DNA of 64,000 nt from Alphaproteobacteria bacterium (GTDB taxonomy: Bacteria > Pseudomonadota > Alphaproteobacteria > MPNO01 > UBA2964), in contig WHUE01000012.1 in assembly GCA_009377375.1 (NCBI GenBank), positions 2,427 through 66,426 on the forward strand, in the 5' to 3' direction. Both the position numbers and the translations under genes were made by a program. The stretch's first letter is position 1. Each line of letters opens with the position of its first letter. Below the pieces are notes generated by a model that was given only the letters and a program-made list of their open reading frames with translations, ran no database searches and was not told the DNA's origin. This document shows positions 1 through 13,811 of this stretch, piece after piece.

Positions 1-1265
1 CGATCAAGGTGGTGCCGCGCGGCGCCGGCACCTCGCTGTCGGGCGGCGCGCTGCCGCTGGCCGACGGGGTGGTGCTGGGGCTCGCGAAGCTCAACCGCGT
101 GCTGGAGATCGACTACGCCAACCGCTGCGCCGTGGTGCAGCCGGGCGTCGCCAACCTCGCCATCTCCGACGCGGTGGCGGGGGCGGGCTACTACTACGCC
201 CCCGACCCGTCGAGCCAGGTCGCCTGCACCATCGGCGGCAACGTGGCGGAGAATTCCGGCGGGGTGCATTGCCTCAAATACGGGCTGACTACCAATAACC
301 TGCTCGGCGTCGAGATGGTGCTGATGGACGGCGAGGTAATCCGGCTCGGCGGCAGGCATCTCGATGCCGGCGGCTACGACCTGCTGGGGCTGGTCACCGG
401 CTCGGAAGGGCTGCTCGGCGTCGTCACCGAGGTCACGGTGCGCATCCTGCGCCGCCCGGCGACGGCGCGGGCCCTGCTGATGGGATTCCCCTCCTCGGAA
501 GCGGCGGGCGGCTGCGTCGCCGCCGTCATCGCCGCCGGCATCGTGCCCGGCGGGATGGAGATGATGGATCGCCCCGCCATCCACGCGGCGGAGGATTTCG
601 TCCATGCCGGCTATCCGCTGGACGTCGACGCGCTGCTGATCGTCGAGCTCGACGGGCCGGAGGCGGAGGTCGACCATCTCGTCGCCCGGGTGGGCGAAAT
701 CGCCGGGGCCTGCGGCGCGGTCTCGGTGCGCGCCAGCGAAACCGAGGCCGAGCGGCTGCTGTTCTGGGCCGGGCGCAAGGCGGCGTTTCCCGCGGTGGGC
801 CGCATCTCGCCCGATTACTACTGCATGGACGGCACCATCCCGCGCCACCGCCTGCCCGAGGTGCTGGCCCGCATGGCGGAGATGTCCTCGCGTTATCGCC
901 TGCGCGTCGCCAACGTGTTCCATGCCGGGGACGGCAATCTGCATCCGCTGATCCTCTACGACGCCAACGCGCCGGGCGAGCTGGAGGCGGCGGAGGCGTT
1001 CGGCGCCGAGATCCTGACGCTCTGCGTCGCCGTCGGCGGCGTGCTGACCGGCGAGCACGGGGTGGGGGTGGAAAAGCGCGACCTGATGGGCTCGATGTTC
1101 AGCGACACCGACCTCGCCGCGCAGCAGCGCCTGAAATGCGCCTTCGACCCCGACCTGCTGCTCAACCCCGGCAAGGTCTTCCCCGTCCTCCACCGCTGCG
1201 CCGAGCTCGGCCGCGTCCACGTCCACCGCGGCGAGACGCGGTTTGCGGACCTGCCGAGGTTCTGA
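1..1265 (+). CDS. glcD: glycolate oxidase FAD-linked subunit GlcD (N-terminus cut by window edge)
   Basis: ORF 9..1265 is open to base 1; FAD-oxidase motifs (GTSLSGGA, GGNVAENSGG, FHAGDGNLHP); directly followed by glcE and glcF. Confidence 0.85.
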   Translation, partial: IKVVPRGAGTSLSGGALPLADGVVLGLAKLNRVLEIDYANRCAVVQPGVANLAISDAVAGAGYYYAPDPSSQVACTIGGNVAENSGGVHCLKYGLTTNNLLGVEMVLMDGEVIRLGGRHLDAGGYDLLGLVTGSEGLLGVVTEVTVRILRRPATARALLMGFPSSEAAGGCVAAVIAAGIVPGGMEMMDRPAIHAAEDFVHAGYPLDVDALLIVELDGPEAEVDHLVARVGEIAGACGAVSVRASETEAERLLFWAGRKAAFPAVGRISPDYYCMDGTIPRHRLPEVLARMAEMSSRYRLRVANVFHAGDGNLHPLILYDANAPGELEAAEAFGAEILTLCVAVGGVLTGEHGVGVEKRDLMGSMFSDTDLAAQQRLKCAFDPDLLLNPGKVFPVLHRCAELGRVHVHRGETRFADLPRF

Positions 1266-1295
1266 ACGCGATGCGCGTCGTGTCGGCAGGCGGCC

Positions 1296-1332
1296 GCCCC
1301 TCCCCAGCCCTCCCCCGAGAGGGGGGAGGGAG
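1296..1332. repeat. GC-rich REP-like hairpin element (CCCTCCCC-N-CCCTCCCCC GAGA GGGGGGAGGG)
   Basis: glcD-glcE intergenic; self-complementary; the same unit recurs twice at 24344-24449. Confidence 0.7.
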
Positions 1333-1437
1333 CCGATGCGGGCCTGGTATTGCCGTTGCGTCCCCTGAGGGGAAAATTCGCCGCGGTATCCGCCTGCGTC
1401 CGTTCCCCCCTTGCGGGGGAAGGACAGGAAGGGGGGT

Positions 1438-2688
1438 ATGCCTGCCCCGCTCCCGGTTCCTCCCATGACCGCCGCCCTGCGCCCCGACACGGAGGACGCC
1501 GTCGTCGCTGCCGTCGCCGATGCGCTGGCCGACGACGCGGTGCTGGAGATCGTCGGCCGGGGCACGAAGCGCGGGCTCGGCCACGCCGTGCGGGCGCGGC
1601 GCGTGCTGGACCTGTCCGCGCTGAGCGGGATCGTGCTCTACGAGCCGGAGGAGCTGGTGCTGTCCGCCCGGGCGGGCACGACACTGTCCGACATCCAGGC
1701 GGCGCTGGCCGAAAGGAACCAGGCGCTGGCCTTCGAGCCGCCGGACTGGGGCCCGCTCTATGGCGGTCCGGCGCGCGCGGGCACGCTGGGCGGGGCCGTG
1801 GCGGCCAACCTGTCGGGGCCGGCGCGCATCCGCAGCGGGGCGGCGCGCGACCACGTGCTGGGCCTGCGCGCCGTCACCGGACGGGGCGAGCTGGTGAAGA
1901 CCGGCGGGCGTGTGGTGAAGAACGTCACCGGCTACGACCTGTGCAAGCTGCTGACCGGCTCGATGGGCACGCTGGCGGCGCTGACGGAAATCACCGTCAA
2001 GGTGCTGCCCGCGCCGGAAAAGATCCGCACCCTCCTCGTCCTCGGGGCCGACGGCGCGATGGCGCTGGCGGCGATGGAGACCGCGCTGCAGAGCCCGCAC
2101 GACGTCTCCGGCGCGGCGCATCTGCCGGCCTATGCCGCCGCGCGCTCGGCGGTATCGTATGTGTCTGGCGCCGGGGCCTCGGTCACCGCGCTGCGCGTCG
2201 AGGGACCGGCCCCCTCGGTGGAGGCGCGGTGCCTGGCGCTGAAGACGCTGCTCGCCGGGTTCGGCCCGCTGGAGGAGCTGCATTTCCGCAACTCGCGCAC
2301 GCTCTGGGCGGAGATCGGCTCGGCTTCGCTGCTGGTCCGGGGCGGCGATCCGCTGTGGCGCATCTCGGTGCCCCCCACCGCCGGCCCGCGCGTCGGCGCC
2401 GTGCTGGCGCGGACGCTGGGGGCGGAGATCGTCGCCGACTGGGGCGGCGGGCTGCTCTGGGCGCGCGTGCCGGCCGCGCTGGAGGACGCCGGCCATGCCT
2501 CCGTCCGCGCCGCCATCGCCCGGCCGGGCGGCCACGCCACGCTGGTCCGCGCGAACGACGCGGTCCGCGCATCGGTGCCGGTGTTCCAGCCTCCCGCGCC
2601 CGGAATCGCCCGGCTCAACGCCCGGATCAGGGACGGGTTCGACCCGAAGCGCATCCTCAATCCCGGCCGCATGGGGGCGGAGCCGTAA
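1438..2688 (+). CDS. glcE: glycolate oxidase FAD-binding subunit GlcE
   Basis: FAD_binding_4-like N-terminus; ATG 1438 preceded by GGAAGGGGGG RBS; operon position between glcD and glcF. Confidence 0.8.
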   Translation: MPAPLPVPPMTAALRPDTEDAVVAAVADALADDAVLEIVGRGTKRGLGHAVRARRVLDLSALSGIVLYEPEELVLSARAGTTLSDIQAALAERNQALAFEPPDWGPLYGGPARAGTLGGAVAANLSGPARIRSGAARDHVLGLRAVTGRGELVKTGGRVVKNVTGYDLCKLLTGSMGTLAALTEITVKVLPAPEKIRTLLVLGADGAMALAAMETALQSPHDVSGAAHLPAYAAARSAVSYVSGAGASVTALRVEGPAPSVEARCLALKTLLAGFGPLEELHFRNSRTLWAEIGSASLLVRGGDPLWRISVPPTAGPRVGAVLARTLGAEIVADWGGGLLWARVPAALEDAGHASVRAAIARPGGHATLVRANDAVRASVPVFQPPAPGIARLNARIRDGFDPKRILNPGRMGAEP

Positions 2689-2691
2689 GCC

Positions 2692-4056
2692 ATGCAGACC
2701 CGCTTCACCCTCGCCCAGCTCGCCGATCCCGACATTTCGGCCGCCAACGACATCTTGCGGAGCTGCGTCCATTGCGGGTTCTGCCTGCCGGCCTGCCCGA
2801 CCTACGCGCTGCTCGGCGACGAGCGGGACGGGCCGCGCGGACGCATCTACCTGATCAAGGAGATGCTGGAGGAAGATCGCGCCGCGACCCCGACCGATGT
2901 GACCCATATCGACCGTTGCCTGTCCTGCATGTCCTGCATGACCGCCTGCCCGTCCGGGGTGAACTACATGCATCTGGTGGACATTGCGCGCGAGCGCATG
3001 GCCGATGCGCCGTCGCGCTCCGCCGGCGGCCGGGCGGTCCGGGCGCTGCTGTCGCGCGTGCTGCCCTGGCCCCGACGCTTCCGCGCGGCGCTGGCCCTCG
3101 GCGCGCTGGCGCGGCCCTTCGCGCGCCTCCTCCCCTGGCCGCTGCGCCGCATGGTGGAGATGATGCCCCGGCGCGCGGCCTCGGGGACGGCGACCGCGCC
3201 CGGCGTGTACCCGGCGGACGGCGCGCGGCGGTTCCGGGTCGCGCTGCTGGCCGGCTGCGTGCAACAGGCGCTGGCGCCGGCGATCAACGCCGCCACGATC
3301 CGCCTGCTCACCCGGCTCGGCTGCGAGGTGGTGGTGGCCGAGGGCGCCGGGTGCTGCGGCGCGCTCGACCATCACATGGGCCGGGGCGGCGCGGCGCGCG
3401 GCCTCGCCCGCGGCAACGTCCGCGCCTGGCTCGCGGCGGCGGAACAGGCGGGCGGGCTCGATGCGATCCTGGTCAACGCCTCGGGCTGCGGCACGATGGT
3501 GAAGGATTACGGCTTCCTGCTGCGCGGCGGCGGCGATGCGGCGGCGGCCGGCCGCGTCTCCGCGCTGGCGCGCGACATCTCCGAGTTCCTGGCGGAGCGC
3601 GACCTGATCGGGCCGAACGTGCAGCCCCTGGCGCGGCCGATACGCGTCGCCTGGCAGGCGCCGTGCTCCCTGCAGCACGGCCAGCGCGTGACCGCCGCGC
3701 CGCGCGACCTGCTCGCCGCCTGCGGCTTCGCGGTGACGGAACCGGCGGACGCCCATCTCTGTTGCGGCTCGGCCGGCACCTACAATATCCTTCAGCCGGA
3801 GATCGCGGACCGGCTGCGCCGGCGGAAACAGGCGGCGCTGGCCGCGACTACCCCCGACGTGGTAGCCAGCGGCAATATCGGCTGCATCGCGCAATTGTCC
3901 GTTGACGCGGCGTGGCCGGTGGTGCATGTGGTCGAGCTTCTCGACTGGGCGACCGGGGGCCCGCGGCCCGCCTCGCTGGGCGATGCCCGCCCGCGGCGCC
4001 CGGGACGGAAAAGGGACGGTGGCAAGGACGGCGGCAGCGCGGCATGGAAGACCTGA
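2692..4056 (+). CDS. glcF: glycolate oxidase iron-sulfur subunit GlcF
   Basis: two 4Fe-4S ferredoxin cysteine motifs (CVHCGFCLPACP, CLSCMSCMTACP) plus C-terminal CCG domains (CCGA, CCGS). Confidence 0.85.
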   Translation: MQTRFTLAQLADPDISAANDILRSCVHCGFCLPACPTYALLGDERDGPRGRIYLIKEMLEEDRAATPTDVTHIDRCLSCMSCMTACPSGVNYMHLVDIARERMADAPSRSAGGRAVRALLSRVLPWPRRFRAALALGALARPFARLLPWPLRRMVEMMPRRAASGTATAPGVYPADGARRFRVALLAGCVQQALAPAINAATIRLLTRLGCEVVVAEGAGCCGALDHHMGRGGAARGLARGNVRAWLAAAEQAGGLDAILVNASGCGTMVKDYGFLLRGGGDAAAAGRVSALARDISEFLAERDLIGPNVQPLARPIRVAWQAPCSLQHGQRVTAAPRDLLAACGFAVTEPADAHLCCGSAGTYNILQPEIADRLRRRKQAALAATTPDVVASGNIGCIAQLSVDAAWPVVHVVELLDWATGGPRPASLGDARPRRPGRKRDGGKDGGSAAWKT

Positions 4057-4598
4057 AGGCCTGGATGGACACTCACGCGAGGCTCGCCTTCCGCCTGCCG
4101 GGCGGGGCGGGGCAGCGCGATTCACGGCTCGACGGGCTGTTCGCGCGGCTGCGCGCCGCGGCCTGCCCGGAAGACGCGGCGCCCATCGAGGAGCGCATCT
4201 GGGCGCTCTGGACCACCAGCGGCGATGCGGCCGTGGACCGGCTGATGTCGATCGGGCTGCGCGCGCTCAGCGCCGGCGGCTACGACGCCGCGCTCGAAGC
4301 CTTCGACGAGGTGACCGAGCTCGCCCCCGATTTCGCCGAGGGCTGGAACAAGCGGGCGACGGTCAACTACCTGATCGGCGATTACGACCAGTCGATCTCC
4401 GACGTGGAAATGACGCTGAGTCTCGAGCCCCGCCATTTCGGCGCGCTGTCCGGCCTCGCCATGATCGCGCTGGCGCTGGGCGAGGAGGAGCAGGCCGTCG
4501 ACGCCTTCGAGGCGGCGCTGGAAATCCACCCCCACATGATCGGCGACAACCGCCAGATCCGCGAACTCCGCGCCCGCGTCCGCGGCCGCGACATCTGA
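4044..4598 (+). CDS. tetratricopeptide-repeat protein
   Basis: ATG 4044 overlaps the glcF 3' end; TPR-like helical repeats (AEGWNKRATVNYLIGDYDQSI...). Confidence 0.55.
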   Translation: MEDLKAWMDTHARLAFRLPGGAGQRDSRLDGLFARLRAAACPEDAAPIEERIWALWTTSGDAAVDRLMSIGLRALSAGGYDAALEAFDEVTELAPDFAEGWNKRATVNYLIGDYDQSISDVEMTLSLEPRHFGALSGLAMIALALGEEEQAVDAFEAALEIHPHMIGDNRQIRELRARVRGRDI

Positions 4599-5780: not shown

Positions 5781-7199
5781 TCAGGCGCCGACCCAGGCGA
5801 TGCGCAGGATGTTGGTCGCGCCGGGGGTGCCGAAGGGGACGCCCGCGGTGATGACCAGCCGCGTGCCGGCGGCGGCGTAGCCGCCGGACTGGGCGAGGCG
5901 GCAGGCCTTGTCGACCATGTCGCCGAAATCCTTCACGTCCTCGGTCAGCAGGCACTGCACGCCCCAGGCGATGGCGAGCTTGCGGGCGGTCTCCGGCTTC
6001 TCGGTCAGGCACAGGATCGGCGCGTCGGGCCGCTCCCGCGCGGCGCGCAAGCTCGTGGAGCCCGAGGTGGTGTAGGTGACGATGGCGGCGGCGGACACGG
6101 TGCGGGCGACCTGGCGCGCGGCGGCGGTGATCGCGTCGGGCGCGGTGGCCTCCGGGTCGTGGTGCTCGGCGTCGCGGATGACGCGGTATTGCGGGTCCTG
6201 CTCCACCCGGGCGATGATGCGCTCCATCATCTCGACCGCCTCGCGCGGGTACTTGCCGGCGGCGGTCTCGGCCGACAGCATCACCGCGTCGGCCCCGTCA
6301 TAGACCGCGGTGGCGACGTCGGAGGCCTCGGCGCGGGTCGGCGCGGGGGCGCCGATCATCGATTCCAGCATCTGCGTCGCCACCACCACCGGCTTGCCGT
6401 GCTGGCGGCAGGCGCGGACGATCTGCTTCTGCAGCGACGGCACGTCCTCCGGCGGCAGCTCGACGCCCAGATCGCCGCGCGCGACCATCACCGCGTCGGA
6501 CAGCATGATGATCTCGTCCAGATGCTGGATCGCCGACGGCTTTTCCAGCTTGGACAGGATCGCCGCGCGGCCCGCCACCAGCTTGCGCGCCTCGGCCACG
6601 TCCTCCGGCCGCTGGACGAAGCTGAGCCCGATATAGTCCACCCCGTGATCGACCGCGAAGCGCAGGTCGTCGCGGTCCTTGGCGCCCAGCGCCGAGATCG
6701 GCAGCGTCGCGTTGGGGACGTTGACGCCCTTGTGGTTCGACAGCCGGCCGCCGACCATCACCTCGGTCTCGGCGAACTTCCTGTCCGCGCGGGTGACGCG
6801 CAGCCGCAGCTTGCCGTCGTCGAGCAGCACCTCGGTGCCTTCCTCGATGGCGGCGAAGATTTCCGGATGGGGCAGGGGGGCGCGGCCCGAATCGCCGGGC
6901 GTCCTGTCGAGGTCGAGCCGGAACGCGCGGCCGGCCACGAGCTCCACCGCGCCGTCCTCGAAATCGCCGACGCGGAGCTTCGGCCCCTGCAGGTCGGAGA
7001 GAATCCCGATCGGGCGGCCGGTCTCCTGTTCCAGCGCGCGGATCGTCTCGATGCGCGCGGCGTGCTCCGGATGGGTGCCGTGGCTGAAATTCAGCCGGAA
7101 GACGTCGGCCCCGGCCTCGAACAGCGTCCGGATCATCTCCGGCGAATCGCTGGCCGGGCCGAGCGTGGCGACGATCTTCGCTTGTCTGTGACGGCGCAT
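5781..7199 (-). CDS. pyk: pyruvate kinase
   Basis: full-length PK domain (KIVATLGPAS, NFSHG, MVARGDLGVE). Confidence 0.9.
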   Translation of the reverse strand: MRRHRQAKIVATLGPASDSPEMIRTLFEAGADVFRLNFSHGTHPEHAARIETIRALEQETGRPIGILSDLQGPKLRVGDFEDGAVELVAGRAFRLDLDRTPGDSGRAPLPHPEIFAAIEEGTEVLLDDGKLRLRVTRADRKFAETEVMVGGRLSNHKGVNVPNATLPISALGAKDRDDLRFAVDHGVDYIGLSFVQRPEDVAEARKLVAGRAAILSKLEKPSAIQHLDEIIMLSDAVMVARGDLGVELPPEDVPSLQKQIVRACRQHGKPVVVATQMLESMIGAPAPTRAEASDVATAVYDGADAVMLSAETAAGKYPREAVEMMERIIARVEQDPQYRVIRDAEHHDPEATAPDAITAAARQVARTVSAAAIVTYTTSGSTSLRAARERPDAPILCLTEKPETARKLAIAWGVQCLLTEDVKDFGDMVDKACRLAQSGGYAAAGTRLVITAGVPFGTPGATNILRIAWVGA

Positions 7200-7207
7200 C
7201 TTTAGCC

Positions 7208-8479
7208 TTATAGATCAGTACGTTCTTCGGGGCCAGCGGCGATGAGGATGCAGCGGAAATCGTTAACATTCGTCCGTGTCGGTCCGGTGACAACGGCGTC
7301 GCCCAGCGCGGCGAAGAACGCGCCGCTGCGATGGCCCTCCAGCATCGCCGCGGCGTCCAGCCCGGCGGCGCGGGCCCGGGCCAGCGTGTCCGGGCCGACG
7401 ACCGCGCCCGCGGCCTCCGAGTCGCCGTCGATCCCGTCGGTGTCGCAGGCGATGGCCCGGATGCCCGCCCGCCCGTCCAGCGCGAGGGCTAGGGCCAGGG
7501 CGTATTCGGCGTTGCGCCCGCCGCGCCCCGCCTCGCCCGCGATCGTCACCGTGGTCTCGCCGCCGGAGACCAGGGCCACGGCGCGGCCCAAAGCCGCGTG
7601 GCGCAGCGCCAGCGCGGCGTGCGCCGCCGCCACCTCCCGCGCCTCGCCCTCGATGCCGCCGCCGAGATCGACCGGCTCGAACCCCGCGGCGCGCGCGGCG
7701 GCGCAGACGGTGGCGAGCGCGTCGCCGGCACGGGCGACGATGTGCACCGCGCCCTCCGCGGCGCCGGGCTTCGGCGTCTCGTTCGCGGGATCCTCCAGCG
7801 CGCGGCGGACGGCATCCGGCGGTGCGATGCGATAGCGCGCCAGAACGGCCCGCGCATCGGCCAGCGTGGTCGCATCGGCGAGCGTCGGGCCGGAGGCGAC
7901 GGTGGCCGGATCGTCGCCCGGCACGTCGGAGACCACCAGCGTCGCCAGCCGGGCCGGGCGCGCCCGCGCCGCCAGCCGCCCGCCCTTGATCGCCGACAAA
8001 TGCTTGCGCACGCAGTTGATCGCCGCGATCGGCGCGCCGCTTCGCAGCAGCGCCCCGGTCACCGCGCGCTTGTCGGCCAGCGAAACCCCCGGCGCCGGCA
8101 GGGCCAGCAGGGCCGAGCCGCCGCCCGAGACCAGCGCCAGAAGCAGGTCGTCCGGCCCGAGCCCGGCGGCGAGATCGAGCATGCGCCGGGCCGCCGCCTC
8201 GCCGGCCGCGTCGGGCACCGGGTGGGCGGCCTCGATCACCGCGATACGCTCGCACCCGACCCCGTGGCCGTAGGGCACGACCACGGCGCCGGACAGCGGG
8301 CCGTCCCAGCGCTGCTCGACCGCGCGGGCCATCGCCGCGGCGGCCTTGCCGGCGCCGACCACGACCGTCCGCCCCGCCGGCGGCGGGGGCAGATGCGGCG
8401 GCACGCAGGTCTCGGCCTGCACCGCGCGCAGCGCCGCCTCGAACAGCGCCAGCAGCGTCGGGTCGGGCCTGTCGGTCAT
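7208..8479 (-). CDS. glycerate 2-kinase (MOFRL family)
   Basis: MOFRL/GckA-like sequence starting MTDRPDPTLL at ATG 8479; the upstream in-frame stretch to 9220 is a non-coding ORF extension. Confidence 0.8.
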   Translation of the reverse strand: MTDRPDPTLLALFEAALRAVQAETCVPPHLPPPPAGRTVVVGAGKAAAAMARAVEQRWDGPLSGAVVVPYGHGVGCERIAVIEAAHPVPDAAGEAAARRMLDLAAGLGPDDLLLALVSGGGSALLALPAPGVSLADKRAVTGALLRSGAPIAAINCVRKHLSAIKGGRLAARARPARLATLVVSDVPGDDPATVASGPTLADATTLADARAVLARYRIAPPDAVRRALEDPANETPKPGAAEGAVHIVARAGDALATVCAAARAAGFEPVDLGGGIEGEAREVAAAHAALALRHAALGRAVALVSGGETTVTIAGEAGRGGRNAEYALALALALDGRAGIRAIACDTDGIDGDSEAAGAVVGPDTLARARAAGLDAAAMLEGHRSGAFFAALGDAVVTGPTRTNVNDFRCILIAAGPEERTDL

Positions 8480-8569
8480 GGGGGTCGCCTCCGGGGCCGG
8501 ATCGGGCGTCACGATAATACGCCGCGCGGATTTGGCGCAAATCGCGGCATGGCCCCATATAATGGGACG

Positions 8570-9379
8570 ATGCATGAGCTTTCCTCCCCCGACGCCCCCC
8601 TGATCGGCGCCGACGATCCCGCCCCGGTCTCCGTCCATAACGGCAACGGCAGGGCGTCCGCCATCGTGCTCTGCGATCACGGCTCGAACGCGGTGCCGAA
8701 GGCGCTGCGCGGGCTGGGGCTGACCGAGCGCGAGCTGCACCTGCATATCGCCTGGGACGTGGGCGCCGCCTCGGTCACGCGTCGTCTCGCCGACGCGCTG
8801 GATGCGCCCGCAGTGCTGGCCAACTACTCGCGCCTGGTGGTCGACTGCAACCGCCCGCTCGATCATCCGACCTCCATCGCCAGCGAAAGCGACGGGGTGC
8901 GGATTCCCGCCAACATCGCGGTGACGGAGGCGGAGGCGCGCCGCCGGGCGGAGGCGATCTTCTGGCCCTATCACCGCAAGATCGGCGCCGGGCTCGCCGG
9001 GTTCGCCGTGCGCGGCGTCCTGCCGGCCATCGTCTCGGTGCACAGCTTCACGGCCACGCTGGGCGGGCACAGGCGGCCGTGGCAGGTGGGCGTGCTGTGG
9101 GACCGTGACGACCGCGTCGCCGCGCCGCTGATCGCCGCACTCCGCGCCGGCGGGATGGAGGTCGGCGACAACCATCCCTATTCCGGGCGCATGCGGTTCG
9201 GCTATTCGATCGAGGTGCACGCCACGGAATGCGGCCTGCCCAACGTGCTGATCGAGCTGCGCGAGGACATGGTGGCCGACGAGGAGGGCCAGGCGCGGAT
9301 GGCGGCGGCGCTGGCCGGCGCGTTGCTTCCCGTCCTCGCGGATCCCGCGCTCTATGCGCGCTGGGCGGGGGCCGAATGA
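8570..9379 (+). CDS. N-formylglutamate amidohydrolase (FGase/HutG-like) family protein
   Basis: FGase-family motifs (CDHGSN, VSVHSF, H..ECGLPNV); alternative start at ATG 8549; its stop overlaps the next gene's start (ATGA). Confidence 0.7.
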   Translation: MHELSSPDAPLIGADDPAPVSVHNGNGRASAIVLCDHGSNAVPKALRGLGLTERELHLHIAWDVGAASVTRRLADALDAPAVLANYSRLVVDCNRPLDHPTSIASESDGVRIPANIAVTEAEARRRAEAIFWPYHRKIGAGLAGFAVRGVLPAIVSVHSFTATLGGHRRPWQVGVLWDRDDRVAAPLIAALRAGGMEVGDNHPYSGRMRFGYSIEVHATECGLPNVLIELREDMVADEEGQARMAAALAGALLPVLADPALYARWAGAE

Positions 9380-10512
9380 GCGCGGAGGAGCCCAGCTTCA
9401 CCCTCGGCATCGAGGAGGAGTACCTGCTGGTCGACACCGGATCGCGGGATCTGGTGGACGATCCGCCCGAGGCGATGCTGGCGCAGTGCGAGGCGCTGCT
9501 CGAGGGGCAGGTGACGCCGGAATTCATGCGCTCGCAGATCGAGGTCGGCACCCGCGTCTGCGGCACCATGGCGGAGGCGCGCGCCGATCTCGCCCATCTG
9601 CGCCGGACGGTGGCCAGCGTCGCCGCGTCGCATGGCTGCGCGCCCATCGCCGTCTCCACCCATCCCTTCGCGGAGTGGCAGCAGCAGAAGCATACCGACA
9701 AGGACCGCTACAACGAGCTGGCCGAGGACATGCAGGTGGTGGCGCGGCGGCTGCTGATCTGCGGCATGCACGTCCATGTCGGCATCGAGGACGACGATCT
9801 GCGCATCGAGCTGCTGAACCAGCTGCCCTATTTCCTGCCGCATTTGCTGGCGCTGTCGACCTCGTCGCCGTTCTGGGGCGGGGCGGATACAGGCATGAAG
9901 TCCTACCGGCTCTCGGTGTTCGACGAGCTGCCGCGCACGGGGCCGCCGGAACATTTCGACAGCTGGGGCGAGTACCAGCGCACGGTGGCGCTGATGGTCC
10001 GCGCCGGGCTGCTGGAGGACGCGACCAAGCTGTGGTGGGACGTGCGCCCGTCGGCCCGGTTTTCGACGGTGGAGATGCGCATCACCGATGTCTGCCCGCT
10101 GCTGGACGACACCGTCGCCATCGCCACGCTGTTCCGCTGCATCTGCCGGATGCTGTGGCGACTCCGGCGCGAGAACAAGCGCTGGCGCGCCTACCCGCCG
10201 ATGCTGATCGCGGAGAACCGCTGGCGCGCCCAGCGCTACGGGCTGGACGAGGGGCTGGTCGATTTCGGCAAGGGCGCGATGGTGCCCTACAGCGCGCTGC
10301 TGAACGAGCTGATCGGGATGCTGCACGAGGACGCGGTGGCGCTCGACTGCGCCGCCGAGCTCGAATCCGCCCGCGCCATCGTCGGCCGCGGCACCTCCGC
10401 CCATCGCCAGCTCGCCGCCTTCGCGGAAGCGAAGGGGGCCGGCGCGGACGATGCCGAGGCGCTGCGCCGCGTCGTCGACGAGCTGGTGGCGGAGACGGTG
10501 GAGGGGCTGTAG
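9376..10512 (+). CDS. YbdK/GCS2-family carboxylate-amine ligase (putative glutamate-cysteine ligase 2)
   Basis: GCS2 signature (FTLGIEEEYLLVD, GMHVHVGIED); start ATG 9376 overlaps the FGase stop. Confidence 0.8.
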   Translation: MSAEEPSFTLGIEEEYLLVDTGSRDLVDDPPEAMLAQCEALLEGQVTPEFMRSQIEVGTRVCGTMAEARADLAHLRRTVASVAASHGCAPIAVSTHPFAEWQQQKHTDKDRYNELAEDMQVVARRLLICGMHVHVGIEDDDLRIELLNQLPYFLPHLLALSTSSPFWGGADTGMKSYRLSVFDELPRTGPPEHFDSWGEYQRTVALMVRAGLLEDATKLWWDVRPSARFSTVEMRITDVCPLLDDTVAIATLFRCICRMLWRLRRENKRWRAYPPMLIAENRWRAQRYGLDEGLVDFGKGAMVPYSALLNELIGMLHEDAVALDCAAELESARAIVGRGTSAHRQLAAFAEAKGAGADDAEALRRVVDELVAETVEGL

Positions 10513-10583: not shown

Positions 10584-11126
10584 CTACGATCCGGCGAGCG
10601 CGGCGAGCTTCAGCACCGTGTTCCAGTTGCGGCCGGTGCCGCAGGTGTCGAGGCGGGACTCGACGATCGCGCCGGTCAGTTTCGACCTGCCGATGCCGTC
10701 CGGATAGCTGATGTAAAGTTGCGCGCCTTGCGCGTGGATACGCTCCCGCCCCGCGATGGAAGCCCGCAGCGCGTCGAGGGCCGGACGGCCGGGCGTGTTG
10801 CCCAGCGTCATGAGGACGAGGCGGCTCGGATCCTGCGCCGCCTCGGCTCGGAAGGGGTTGGCGGCAACGATCCGCGCCCACTGCGCCGCGCTGCGGACGA
10901 ACACCTCGGTACGAAGGCCGAAGCGGTCGGCGACGGCGCGCCCGATCGCCGCCTCCAGCGCGCCCCCGCTGCGGCCGTCGCCGCGAAAGACGACATTGCC
11001 GGTTTGCAGCAGGGTCCGCGCATCCGCCAAACCGAGCCCGGCGAACAGGTCGCGCAGCTCCGCCATCGCGACCTTCCCGTGCCCGCCGACATTGACCGCG
11101 CGCAGAAGCGCGATGTGAACCGTCAT
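10584..11126 (-). CDS. DUF1697 family protein
   Basis: N-terminus MTVHIALLRAVNVGGHGKVAMAELR is typical of DUF1697; ATG at 11126. Confidence 0.65.
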   Translation of the reverse strand: MTVHIALLRAVNVGGHGKVAMAELRDLFAGLGLADARTLLQTGNVVFRGDGRSGGALEAAIGRAVADRFGLRTEVFVRSAAQWARIVAANPFRAEAAQDPSRLVLMTLGNTPGRPALDALRASIAGRERIHAQGAQLYISYPDGIGRSKLTGAIVESRLDTCGTGRNWNTVLKLAALAGS

Positions 11127-11287
11127 GGGCCCGCTCCGCCGAAGACCGTTTCCGCGTTCAGACTGCCACGCCGCGGGCGGCGGCGACAGGGGCGGCGGCG
11201 CGGGACTGGATTTTTCGGCCGCACCGGCCAACATTACCGGCAGGAACGGGCGCGCCCGGCGGCGCGCCGCTGAGGAGGACGAGAGCG

Positions 11288-11605
11288 ATGGACCAGATCG
11301 ACGACAAGACCCGCACCGAGCTGGAAGCGGCGGCGTTCCGCACCCTGCTCGGCCATCTCCAGAAGCGCAGCGACGTGCAGAACATCGACCTGATGAACCT
11401 GGCCGGGTTCTGCCGCAACTGCCTCAGCAAGTGGCTCGTCGCCGCCGCCAAGGAAAAGGGCGTTGCGCTGTCGATGGAGGATGCGCGCGAGCACGTCTAC
11501 GGCATGCCCTATGACGAATACAAGGCGAAGCACCAGGAAGAGGCCACGCCCGACCAGCAGGCCGCGTTCAAGAAGGTCATGGAGACCCCCGGCCTCACGA
11601 CCTGA
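11288..11605 (+). CDS. DUF1244 family protein
   Basis: conserved alphaproteobacterial small protein ([10 protein letters not shown] motif). Confidence 0.65.
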
Positions 11606-11653
11606 GGCGGCCGGGGGGGACACCCGGCCGTTCCGCACACCAATTTCCTTCTC

Positions 11654-11686
11654 CCGTCGTGGTCGGCCTTTGCCGACCACGACGGA
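11654..11686. other. perfect 13-bp-stem hairpin (CCGTCGTGGTCGG cctttg CCGACCACGACGG)
   Basis: between the DUF1244 gene and gapR; a weaker GC hairpin at 11608-11630 sits just after the DUF1244 stop. Confidence 0.5.
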
Positions 11687-11906
11687 TAGGGGGTGCGTTG
11701 GAGCCGGACGGCGGCAGGCTCAACCGGGGCATGACGCAACGAGAGGGGAGCCGGCGTCCCGATCTTGGCGATGGCCGCACGGCGAGACCTGGCTTATCCA
11801 CATCCGTCCACAGGAATCTGCCGCGCGCCGCCTGCGCGGCATTCCGATTCAGCGCCGCGTTCCCTATGGTCCGGGAACGCATAGCCCAACCGGACGGAGA
11901 CGACCC

Positions 11907-12176
11907 ATGACCGACGCCCCTGTCACGCTCGCGCGCGACCACCTGCGCAGCTTCATCGAGAGAATCGAGCGGCTGGAGGAGGAAAAGGCGACGCTCTCGG
12001 CCGACATCCGCGAGGTCTACGCGGAGGCCAAGGGCACCGGGTTCGACCCGAAGATCATGCGCCAGGTCGTGCGGTTGCGCAAAATGGAGCCCAACGACAG
12101 GCAGGAGCAGGAGCACGTGCTCGACACCTACCTCGCCGCGCTCGGCATGCTCGATACGCCGATGGCGGCGGAATAG
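11907..12176 (+). CDS. gapR: GapR-like nucleoid-associated protein (DUF2312)
   Basis: 89 aa; ERLEEEKA...[19 protein letters not shown]......LDTYL matches the Caulobacter GapR family; GGAGACGAC RBS. Confidence 0.8.
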
Positions 12177-12398
12177 GGCGCATCGCGGCGCACCGGCCCC
12201 CGATTTCCGACCCGCCTTTCCCCTCCGCGCGCCGGCACTGTATTCTGCCCGCATCGGTTCCCTGTTTCGTACAGGGTTGGCGAGGGAGGACGGAGCCGAT
12301 GCTGAAACCCGGAGGCGCGGCAGCGCGCGCGCCGTACCCGTGCCTCGCAGGCCATGCGGGCATACCGACACCGCAGGGCGACTGCCGGAGCGACGGCC

Positions 12399-13811
12399 AT
12401 GCCGCGCTCCGATGATACCGCCCCGCGCGACGGCTTCCTGAGGCGCTGGAGGCGGCCGGTCGCCGCCGCGGCTGCGGGCGTGCTGGTGGGGATCGTCTTC
12501 GCCTACGGCGTCTGGCACGTCCTGCGGACGCCTGGGGACCCGCGCTACATCCGGCTCGATGGCGACGGGCTCGCTGCGCATTATGCGTCCAGCTTCCTGC
12601 CGATCCAGCACTGGTCCTACCCGGAGTTCGATCCGGCGCTGTTCGCGGGCGACGACCCCGGACGACGGTTCGGCTTCGATTTCGCGCGCGACGTGCGGGA
12701 CCGCTGGCGCGTGGTTGCGGTCGGGGACATCATGGCCCACGATTCGCTTCAGATCACGGCGTTCACCCGCCGGACGGCGCCGGGCGAGAGCGCCGGCGGC
12801 TACGGTTGGGTGCTGTCGGAGGCCGGGGCGGTGATCGGCGGGGCGGATTTCGCGATCGGCAATCTGGAGACGGTGGCCTCCGCCCATCTCCCGCGCCGGG
12901 GCTTCCCCCGGTTCAACGTCGATCCGCAATACCTGAAGGCGCTGGCGGCGCTCGGCTTCGACGCCATGACGACGGCCAACAACCATATTCTCGATCACGG
13001 CATCGAGGGCCTGCGCGACACCGAGAAAAGCCTGGCCGCGCACCGGCTGGCATTCACCGGCACCGGCGGCGCGCTGCGGCGGGGCGTGCCGATCGAGGTT
13101 GCGTCGCGGAACGCCGCGGAGCCCCTGACCGTCGGCATCGTCAGCTACACGGACTCCGTCAACGGAACCGCCTGGCAGCATATCCGCCGGCGCGGCGCGC
13201 TGGCGGAGGTCAATTATCTCTGCACCGACAAGCACTGGACGTTCGGCGTCTTCGTAGACTGGTTCGCCCCCGGCACCTGCCACACGACCGAGGAGAGCTT
13301 CCTCGCGGAGGCAGGCGCGTCGATCACGGCCCTGCGGCGGGACGGGGCCGACTATGTCGCCGTGTTCGTGCACCGGCTTCGGGCCGATGCGTTCTTTCCG
13401 AGCGAGGACGAGCGGCGGCAATCGGCCGCGCTGGCGAAGCTCGGCGCGGATGCGGTCGTCAATACCGGGTCGCACACGATCATGCCGCTCGAGCGCCTGT
13501 ATACGAAGGACGGCGAGGTCCGGCCGACGGCCGATCCTGAATCGAGGGAACACCTGATCGTCTACGGCCTCGGCAATTTCGTCTCGAGCCAGGGCGGGGC
13601 GAGCGCATACGGGCTCGTCGCCGAGATCGATATCGGCCGCGACCGTGACGGCCGGTTCGTTCATGCGGTGACGCCGCATATCGCCCAATCCGTGATGACG
13701 ATGGAGGAGCATCCGCAGGGCGAGCGCCGCCGGAAGCTCGAGATCTACCGCCTGCGCATGCTGACCTTCGACGCGTTCCTTGCCGGGGTCCGGCGGATTC
13801 CGAAGATGTGA
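12399..13811 (+). CDS. CapA/PGA_cap-family membrane-anchored metallophosphoesterase-like protein
   Basis: N-terminal TM anchor; VAVGDIMAHD ... TTANNHILDHG ... YGLGNF motifs of the CapA (poly-gamma-glutamate capsule) family. Confidence 0.7.
   Translation: MPRSDDTAPRDGFLRRWRRPVAAAAAGVLVGIVFAYGVWHVLRTPGDPRYIRLDGDGLAAHYASSFLPIQHWSYPEFDPALFAGDDPGRRFGFDFARDVRDRWRVVAVGDIMAHDSLQITAFTRRTAPGESAGGYGWVLSEAGAVIGGADFAIGNLETVASAHLPRRGFPRFNVDPQYLKALAALGFDAMTTANNHILDHGIEGLRDTEKSLAAHRLAFTGTGGALRRGVPIEVASRNAAEPLTVGIVSYTDSVNGTAWQHIRRRGALAEVNYLCTDKHWTFGVFVDWFAPGTCHTTEESFLAEAGASITALRRDGADYVAVFVHRLRADAFFPSEDERRQSAALAKLGADAVVNTGSHTIMPLERLYTKDGEVRPTADPESREHLIVYGLGNFVSSQGGASAYGLVAEIDIGRDRDGRFVHAVTPHIAQSVMTMEEHPQGERRRKLEIYRLRMLTFDAFLAGVRRIPKM

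Follow-up and report, generated by a model that had tools for sequence, protein, structure and literature searches.

In a 64,000-nucleotide stretch of DNA from an alphaproteobacterium (contig WHUE01000012.1, positions 2,427 to 66,426; hereafter the window), two genes that overlap by four nucleotides encode a predicted zinc amidohydrolase of the FGase family and an ATP-dependent carboxylate-amine ligase of the YbdK/GCS2 family. We find that the same pair, in the same order, on the same strand and with tight spacing, recurs in bacteria of several phyla, so that it is a conserved pair, and this bears out the view of the initial annotation that the two genes are co-expressed as a unit. Arguing by analogy with related hydrolases and their partners, we judge the chances to be about even that the pair is a small operon for a gamma-glutamyl 'on/off' enzyme couple.

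8570..9379, + strand: predicted zinc amidohydrolase of the FGase family (PF05013, COG3931-type), 269 amino acids; alternative in-frame start at 8549
9376..10512, + strand: ATP-dependent carboxylate-amine ligase of the YbdK/GCS2 family, 378 amino acids (PF04107, NF010039 and PDB matches)
9376..9379, + strand: ATGA start/stop overlap (translational coupling), read in the sequence
8480..8569, no strand assigned: divergent intergenic region from the glycerate-kinase-like gene to the pair, read in the sequence

The G+C content of the window is ~71%, and genes were therefore called by third-position GC together with profile matches; the two open reading frames (ORFs), both on the + strand, gave third-position GC values of 0.90 for the hydrolase and 0.93 for the ligase. 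The translational coupling claimed at the outset is real, since in the overlap, GCCGAATGAGC, the ligase ATG at 9376-9378 lies over the hydrolase TGA at 9377-9379. No paralogue of the hydrolase or of the ligase was found elsewhere in the window.

Family membership of the two enzymes

Consistent with the families first proposed, both of which hold on profile hidden Markov model search, the hydrolase matches PF05013 (FGase) with an E value of 1.5e-43 and 149.9 bits (cutoff 28.9) over profile positions 3-217 of 219. The span originally given to it, 8549-9379, has the right frame but probably the wrong start: ATG 8570 is more likely than the in-frame ATG 8549, because P0001, the homologue nearest to it at 94% identity, begins at the equivalent of 8570 (MHELSS...), as do other close ones. 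By sequence, Atu2144 (2ODF; E 5.6e-42) comes nearest among the solved structures, and identity to the Atu2144 clade is 32-35%. The hydrolase has the carboxypeptidase-like alpha/beta fold in common with the solved FGase-family members, and the next-closest fold after these is that of the poly-gamma-glutamate hydrolases PghP and PghL (12-15% identity; PMC6506827). Residues H37, H59, D63, D92, H158, H217 and E229, candidates for metal binding or catalysis, are invariant in 40 homologues that include the Atu2144 clade, and the invariant set of His, Asp, Glu and Arg residues is consistent with an active metallo-amidohydrolase.

The Pfam family is named after HutG and databases call its members 'N-formylglutamate amidohydrolase', which would suit a genuine N-formylglutamate deformylase of histidine catabolism. 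Judged by its sequence, however, the hydrolase is not HutG, because its score on the hutG equivalog TIGR02017 is 16.1 bits, where the cutoff is 278.75. Moreover, no hut genes are found among the genes identified in the window between 4.6 and 18.9 kb or in the related loci L081 and L083, and we consider a role in histidine catabolism to have hardly any chance of being right.

The ligase matches PF04107 (GCS2) with an E value of 6.9e-58 and 196.7 bits (cutoff 21), exceeds the cutoff of TIGR02050 (323.8 bits against 176.4), and passes the NCBIfam equivalog NF010039, 'carboxylate-amine ligase', with 531.9 bits against 371. Its score on the YbdK model NF010040 is 223 bits, under the cutoff of 425, and it stays under the cutoff of every glutamate-cysteine ligase equivalog: NF010043 (342 against 409), NF010042 (265 against 427), NF010044 (263 against 437), NF010045 (194 against 395), TIGR02048 (45 against 249) and EgtA (17.5 against 371). 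Its nearest solved relatives are YbdK of Salmonella (1TT4, E 1e-46) and of E. coli (1R8G, E 1e-44). The GhExE signature of the Mg/ATP site, which defines the carboxylate-amine ligase superfamily (PMC2588565), reads G11-I-E13-E14-E15, and E. coli YbdK has the same residue at 41 positions that are invariant in the clade, among them H132-V-H134-V of the HVHVG motif. The only name that NCBI gives to the ligase clade is 'carboxylate-amine ligase'. For YbdK-type ligases a structure and a weak activity in vitro date from 2004, but they are not known to have an accepted physiological role, and among the literature matches listed there was no paper on the physiological role of YbdK. The passage of PMC2588565 that cites Lehmann et al. 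(2004) gives gamma-glutamyl:cysteine ligation as the only activity shown for YbdK-type enzymes.

As a side observation on the ligase family, protein P0367 is a GCS2 ligase, 41% identical, with a C-terminal ACT extension that scores 25.5 bits, just under the Pfam cutoff, and the extension hints at family members regulated by amino acids.

Conservation of the pair and partners of related hydrolases

We surveyed the neighbourhoods of related genes from both sides. From the ligase side, one genome per species was scanned, which gave at least 524 relatives, the best 80 of which (58-69% identity) were kept; from the hydrolase side, metagenomes were searched with an FGase alignment, which gave 73 informative loci. 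The surveys cover the best 80 loci of each scan; the ORFs of these loci were called mechanically, and their taxon labels are the unchecked titles of metagenome-assembled genome (MAG) records.

Of the 76 ligase loci with enough upstream sequence, 53 have an FGase gene as the immediate upstream neighbour of the orthologous ligase and in the same orientation, and these FGase homologues show 40-53% identity. Conservation as neighbours, on which the initial annotation had staked its proposal, is thus borne out in those loci without being universal, as each gene also occurs alone. By title, the paired loci belong to Rhodospirillales and other Alphaproteobacteria, Woeseiaceae, Chromatiales and other Gammaproteobacteria, Bryobacterales, Terriglobia, Latescibacterota and Gemmatimonadaceae, so that the pair spreads over at least five phyla or classes (Alpha- and Gammaproteobacteria, Acidobacteriota, Latescibacterota and Gemmatimonadota). 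In all 52 scored pairs the distance from the FGase stop to the ligase start falls between -4 and +71 nucleotides, with an overlap of 4 or 1 nucleotides in about half. Seen from the hydrolase, the reverse holds as well: a GCS2 gene lies immediately downstream of the FGase gene in 41 of the 73 informative metagenome loci. All-against-all clustering of ORFs from the 80 ligase loci found no third gene common across phyla; the next most common families, present in at most 18 loci each, reflect lineage-specific synteny, and DUF1244 and GapR are conserved neighbours within Alphaproteobacteria only. We conclude that the pairing is not chance. In addition, protein P0257 (L092:6001-7974) is a 657-residue FGase-GCS2 fusion with the same domain order and a linker of ~40 residues, which we count as weak support, since it stands alone and comes from a single MAG contig.

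The partners of paralogous hydrolases give a second line of evidence. FGase-family genes (39-41% identical) adjoin a 'glutamine synthetase family protein' on Klebsiella IncF plasmids, on S. medicae pSymA and on a B. anthropi plasmid, in cassettes that also hold a class III aminotransferase, an isochorismatase-family hydrolase, a transporter and an RpiR regulator. For all paralogues with such a neighbour on Klebsiella, Sinorhizobium and Brucella replicons, identity is about 32-41%. Likewise, the cluster of P0122, the Atu2144 orthologue (96% identical to 2ODF), contains RpiR, FGase, an amino-acid permease, Gln-synt_C, Aldedh and Fe-ADH. The families PF00120, PF00465, PF00171 and PF05013 of this cluster are exactly the Pfam set tabulated for the gamma-glutamyl ethanolamine pathway (PMC9397018 Table 2), the PF05013 member of which has been assigned as a gamma-glutamylglycine amidohydrolase (PMC9397018 Table 2; PMC6529630, S. 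coelicolor SCO1615). The pathway is described as demonstrated in C. salexigens and A. tumefaciens C58 in the passage of PMC10132767 that cites Vetting et al. (2015), and Phaeobacter homologues are induced on phosphatidylethanolamine (PMC10132767). GCS2 ligases belong to the same superfamily as ligases folded like glutamine synthetase (GS) and have the same chemistry (PMC2588565). Taken together, the plasmid paralogues, the Atu2144 cluster and the Pfam set of the ethanolamine pathway indicate that FGase hydrolases repeatedly partner GS-fold ATP-dependent ligases and, by analogy, that they remove the glutamyl group which those ligases install. The gamma-glutamyl chemistry suggested by the initial annotation remains the best guess for the window pair, given how often FGase paralogues adjoin GS-like gamma-glutamyl ligases.

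The plasmid cassette recurs: the set of GS-type ligase, FGase, aminotransferase, isochorismatase, permease or ABC transporter and RpiR regulator (L085, L086, L087) occurs in 45 Klebsiella plasmid records and on rhizobial replicons, and it looks like a gamma-glutamylation-type amine catabolic island.

Proposed function and alternatives

In the on/off couple that we propose, the ligase would spend ATP on activating glutamate at its gamma-carboxylate, or else a carboxylate much like it, and form a gamma-glutamyl amide; the hydrolase, as a carboxypeptidase-like metalloenzyme, would cleave a gamma-glutamyl-amino-acid amide and release glutamate. The substrate of the hydrolase would be either the direct product of the ligase or a derivative made from it by enzymes encoded elsewhere. 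The scheme would amount to a minimal version of the gamma-glutamylation pathways, with GCS2 replacing the GS-like ligase, and glutamate would probably serve as a removable 'handle' that is put on a small molecule and then taken off. We infer by analogy the gamma-glutamyl chemistry of both steps, the relatedness of the two enzymes' substrates and the identity of the acceptor, for which our foremost guesses are cysteine or some other amino acid. That the acceptor should be an amino acid, as cysteine is for YbdK in vitro, would suit the pair because both known FGase-family reactions free an alpha-amino acid: glutamate from N-formylglutamate, and glycine and glutamate from gamma-Glu-Gly.

Several points weigh against this proposal, beginning with its functional assignment, which is made wholly by analogy. 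If ligase and hydrolase worked on one and the same amide, ATP would be spent in a futile cycle, and the pair has no modifying enzyme conserved alongside it; either modifying enzymes would be encoded elsewhere, or the pair would set the level of a gamma-glutamyl compound, or the hydrolase would act first. GCS2-linked FGases form a clade separate from GS-linked FGases in a simple neighbour-joining tree without support values, so their substrate specificity may differ. The fusion P0257, as a singleton, could be a true Rosetta-stone fusion, but could equally reflect an assembly error such as a lost stop codon. Furthermore, the two genes can be found apart. No FGase gene accompanies the ligase in 23 of the 76 loci, mostly from Hyphomicrobiales or Methyloceanibacter, where a VIT1 transporter gene lies upstream of the ligase; an SDR gene and a glutathione-reductase-like flavoprotein gene follow the ligase on the opposite strand in L001, L003, L008 and about 12 other Hyphomicrobiales loci (e.g. 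L008:9909-11303). The neighbours of FGase-less ligases are otherwise unrelated (VIT1, GGDEF/EAL, Dus, an SBP and aminotransferases), and Paracoccus plasmids carry the ligase alone. Conversely, 30 of the 73 FGase loci have no GCS2 or GS-like ligase nearby, and ORF clustering found no alternative partner common to these 30; in L139:5001-6098 and five similar metagenome loci the order runs pyruvate kinase, glycerate kinase, FGase and then DUF1244, with no ligase. From the loci that keep either gene alone we therefore conclude that hydrolase and ligase are not obligatorily interdependent.

At one locus labelled Latescibacterota (L012:7102-7962), an MBL-fold hydrolase (Lactamase_B_2) occupies the FGase slot directly upstream of the ligase, and may be a non-orthologous replacement of the FGase, in this single case.

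Other explanations would account for the same gene pair. The ligase could be a second gamma-glutamylcysteine synthetase, with the hydrolase controlling or recycling gamma-Glu-Cys or a related conjugate and so buffering cysteine under oxidative or thiol stress. Gamma-Glu-Cys ligation is, after all, the sole activity reported for YbdK in the cited passage of PMC2588565, the sub-threshold score on the glutamate-cysteine ligase model NF010043 is strong (342 bits), and thiol-related genes turn up near the ligase: the glutathione-reductase-like flavoprotein gene ~740 base pairs away in ~15 Hyphomicrobiales loci, a serine O-acetyltransferase gene on a P. yeei plasmid (L091), an adjoining SOD-family gene in P. 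ferrooxidans (L090) and a GFA-domain gene after the fusion gene (L092:7986-8393). However, each of these neighbours is confined to a single lineage and none is kept with the pair across phyla, no gshB is adjacent, and it is the 'carboxylate-amine ligase' equivalog that passes, while all glutamate-cysteine ligase equivalogs remain under cutoff. The reported activity of YbdK with cysteine is, moreover, weak. We regard the thiol role as unlikely. The two enzymes might instead act in sequence, the hydrolase splitting an N-acyl or gamma-glutamyl conjugate to free glutamate, or an amino acid, and the ligase re-attaching what was freed to another amine, for a net ATP-driven transfer or salvage. Such a hand-off would avoid the futile cycle, would fit the place of the hydrolase gene ahead of the ligase gene and the translational coupling between them, and could draw on the fact that hydrolysis of N-formylglutamate and of gamma-glutamylglycine both yield glutamate, the usual carboxylate of the ligase family (PMC9397018, PMC6529630). 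Cellular glutamate is abundant, however, so that a dedicated supply seems needless, and gene order is a weak guide to reaction order; we think the hand-off quite unlikely.

The adjacency could also be a matter of inherited synteny or horizontal co-transfer, with the two enzymes having no pathway in common. Each gene is often found alone, and the alphaproteobacterial pair sits within a long housekeeping synteny that runs from pyruvate kinase and glycerate kinase to DUF1244 and GapR. Against this stand the recurrence of the pair in distant phyla with entirely different flanks, its constant orientation with stop and start overlapping or nearly so, the apparent FGase-GCS2 fusion, and the pairing of paralogous FGases with ligases of the same fold superfamily, which together make functional independence distinctly improbable. 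A reversible tagging system like PafA/Dop, in which a protein would receive glutamate or a peptide from the ligase and lose it again to the hydrolase, is suggested by the presumed descent of PafA from a GCS2-like ancestor (PMC2588565) and by a carboxypeptidase-like hydrolase fold that is related to enzymes acting on polymeric gamma-glutamyl substrates. Yet no conserved small ORF, proteasome gene or chaperone gene accompanies the pair in the 80 loci or the annotated contexts, the ligase is a YbdK homologue of ordinary length, and GCS2-like ligases without a Pup-like neighbour have been argued to make small peptides (PMC2588565), and we hold tagging to be very improbable.

The gamma-glutamyl on/off couple is the reading that we prefer. 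Its parts are in large measure familiar: both genes receive annotations as a matter of routine, a curated NCBIfam model exists for the ligase clade, and because the general logic of a ligase/hydrolase pair in gamma-glutamyl chemistry is already known, the pair is not a new kind of system. A full-text search of the available literature library found no paper on the FGase-GCS2 pairing. The study of Iyer et al. (2009, Mol BioSyst), reportedly a survey of amidoligase neighbourhoods, may mention the pairing. The significance of the coupled partner, whose closest characterised relatives have been assigned as gamma-glutamyl-amino-acid hydrolases, is that it opens the physiological role of YbdK-type ligases to direct experiment. 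Substrates, if found, would annotate a family of more than 1000 clusters at 50% identity (E 1e-30 or better). A bolder version, which we rate as a long shot, is that the module makes and turns over an undescribed gamma-glutamyl compound that would be the physiological product of YbdK-type ligases (for example an amino-acid or thiol redox or stress buffer), or reversibly gamma-glutamylates a macromolecule, in soil and marine bacteria of several phyla. If, on the other hand, the pair were a minor gamma-Glu-Cys backup, the result would be ordinary.

Flanking genes and known systems

The pair is flanked in the window by the following genes.

5781-7199, minus strand: pyruvate kinase
7208-8479, minus strand, divergent from the pair: glycerate-kinase-like gene, DUF4147 and MOFRL (Pfam)
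10584-11234, minus strand, convergent with the pair: DUF1697 (Pfam)
11288-11605, + strand: DUF1244 (Pfam)
11463-12176, + strand: GapR-domain ORF, 237 amino acids as listed, with the domain in residues 157-228 only
12354-13811 (alternative start 12399), + strand: CapA/PGA_cap ORF (PF09587, E 1.2e-43)

The upstream gene is divergent and the DUF1697 gene downstream is convergent; the operon therefore consists of the hydrolase and ligase genes alone. A perfect TATAAT hexamer lies at 8558-8563 and ends 6 nucleotides before ATG 8570, and a consensus promoter scan found no full -35/-10 site around the pair; a promoter role for the hexamer is only a suggestion. As a promoter it would imply a leaderless or near-leaderless transcript, with ATG 8549 upstream of the transcription start. 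No intrinsic terminator was found around the pair and no meaningful inverted repeats in its flanks, and the window yielded no Rfam families or tRNAs. The true start of the GapR ORF is probably near 11900, because its homologue in the related locus L081 has 89 amino acids and the domain spans only residues 157-228. The flanks also hold a 160-residue ORF without a Pfam match, an SDR gene and a gene for an AMP-binding enzyme.

The initial annotation had linked the pair to the CapA/PGA_cap gene. The gene is indeed nearby, with its PF09587 match, 1.8 kb downstream; the functional link found no support in the 80 related loci. Proximity, and the resemblance of the hydrolase fold to PghP and PghL, would favour a role for the pair alongside CapA in a poly-gamma-glutamate-like or capsule-type pathway. 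However, three unrelated genes intervene, DUF1697 (on the opposite strand), DUF1244 and GapR, and in none of the 80 loci did a search with a threshold as loose as E 1e-3 turn up a CapA or DUF1697 homologue within 8 kb of the ligase. The syntenic locus L081, 68% identical (hydrolase 66%), has neither gene and runs pyruvate kinase, glycerate kinase, FGase, GCS2, a small ORF, DUF1244, GapR, SDR, BON, AMP-binding and peptidase M3, so that the gene order of the window is that of L081 plus an inserted DUF1697 and CapA. Of the components of a poly-gamma-glutamate system (CapB/PgsB, CapC and CapA), a CapA-like gene alone is present; CapB and CapC were not found among the flanking genes scanned. Because CapA is absent from all 80 loci, because L081 keeps the same order without it and because there is no CapB or CapC, we conclude that CapA is a lineage-specific neighbour outside the module. 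To judge from the gene order, CapA and DUF1697 look like lineage-specific insertions into an alphaproteobacterial synteny. The neighbourhood survey effectively refutes a joint pathway with CapA, to which we attach next to no credence. The CapA-like protein itself has one N-terminal hydrophobic segment, and it matches the model of the lasso-peptide epimerase MslH weakly (42 bits, far under the cutoff).

Further upstream, the minus strand has two long ORFs, 1162-4125 and 4122-4535, that match no Pfam family and whose GC peaks at the first codon position, so that they probably do not code for protein in that frame. The + strand ORFs 2692-4056 and 3912-4598, with third-position GC of ~0.9, are likelier to be real genes.

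Compared with known systems, the pair comes near to several without coinciding with any of them. In the gamma-glutamyl ethanolamine pathway (C. salexigens, the A. tumefaciens Atu2144 cluster, S. coelicolor SCO1613/SCO1615 and Phaeobacter MED193_10026-10056) the ligase is GS-like (PF00120), whereas here it is GCS2/YbdK (PF04107); the pair has no companion Fe-ADH, aldehyde dehydrogenase, transporter or RpiR regulator among its neighbours in the window or across the 80 loci, nor is there a GS-like ligase gene in its neighbourhood in the window, and the window hydrolase falls in a separate neighbour-joining clade and, at 32-35% identity, is not the Atu2144 orthologue. YbdK of E. coli and Salmonella (1R8G, 1TT4) has the same family, length and GhExE/HVHVG core as the window ligase but belongs to a different NCBIfam equivalog, as the window ligase passes NF010039 and scores 223 against 425 on NF010040. 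We know of no FGase partner for enterobacterial ybdK. HutG has PF05013 in common with the window hydrolase, which fails the hutG equivalog and has no hut context. PafA/Dop is also a ligase/hydrolase pair working on gamma-glutamyl amide chemistry, with a ligase from a GCS2-like ancestor (PMC2588565), and is like the window pair to that extent; Dop, however, is paralogous to its ligase and is accompanied by Pup and proteasome genes, none of which holds here. PghP and PghL (YndL), at 12-15% identity to the window hydrolase, are phage or prophage enzymes that act on a polymer and have no ligase partner.

In the Puu system, glutamate is attached to an amine at the expense of ATP by PuuA and is later removed by hydrolysis by PuuD. 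The proposed pair would follow the same logic of glutamate on with ATP and off by hydrolysis (tabulated in PMC9397018), although the Puu enzymes come from other families, PuuA being GS-like and PuuD of the class I glutamine-amidotransferase type, and the puu cluster includes oxidising enzymes. If the proposed function is correct, the theme of glutamate as a removable handle would extend from GS-like to GCS2 ligases.

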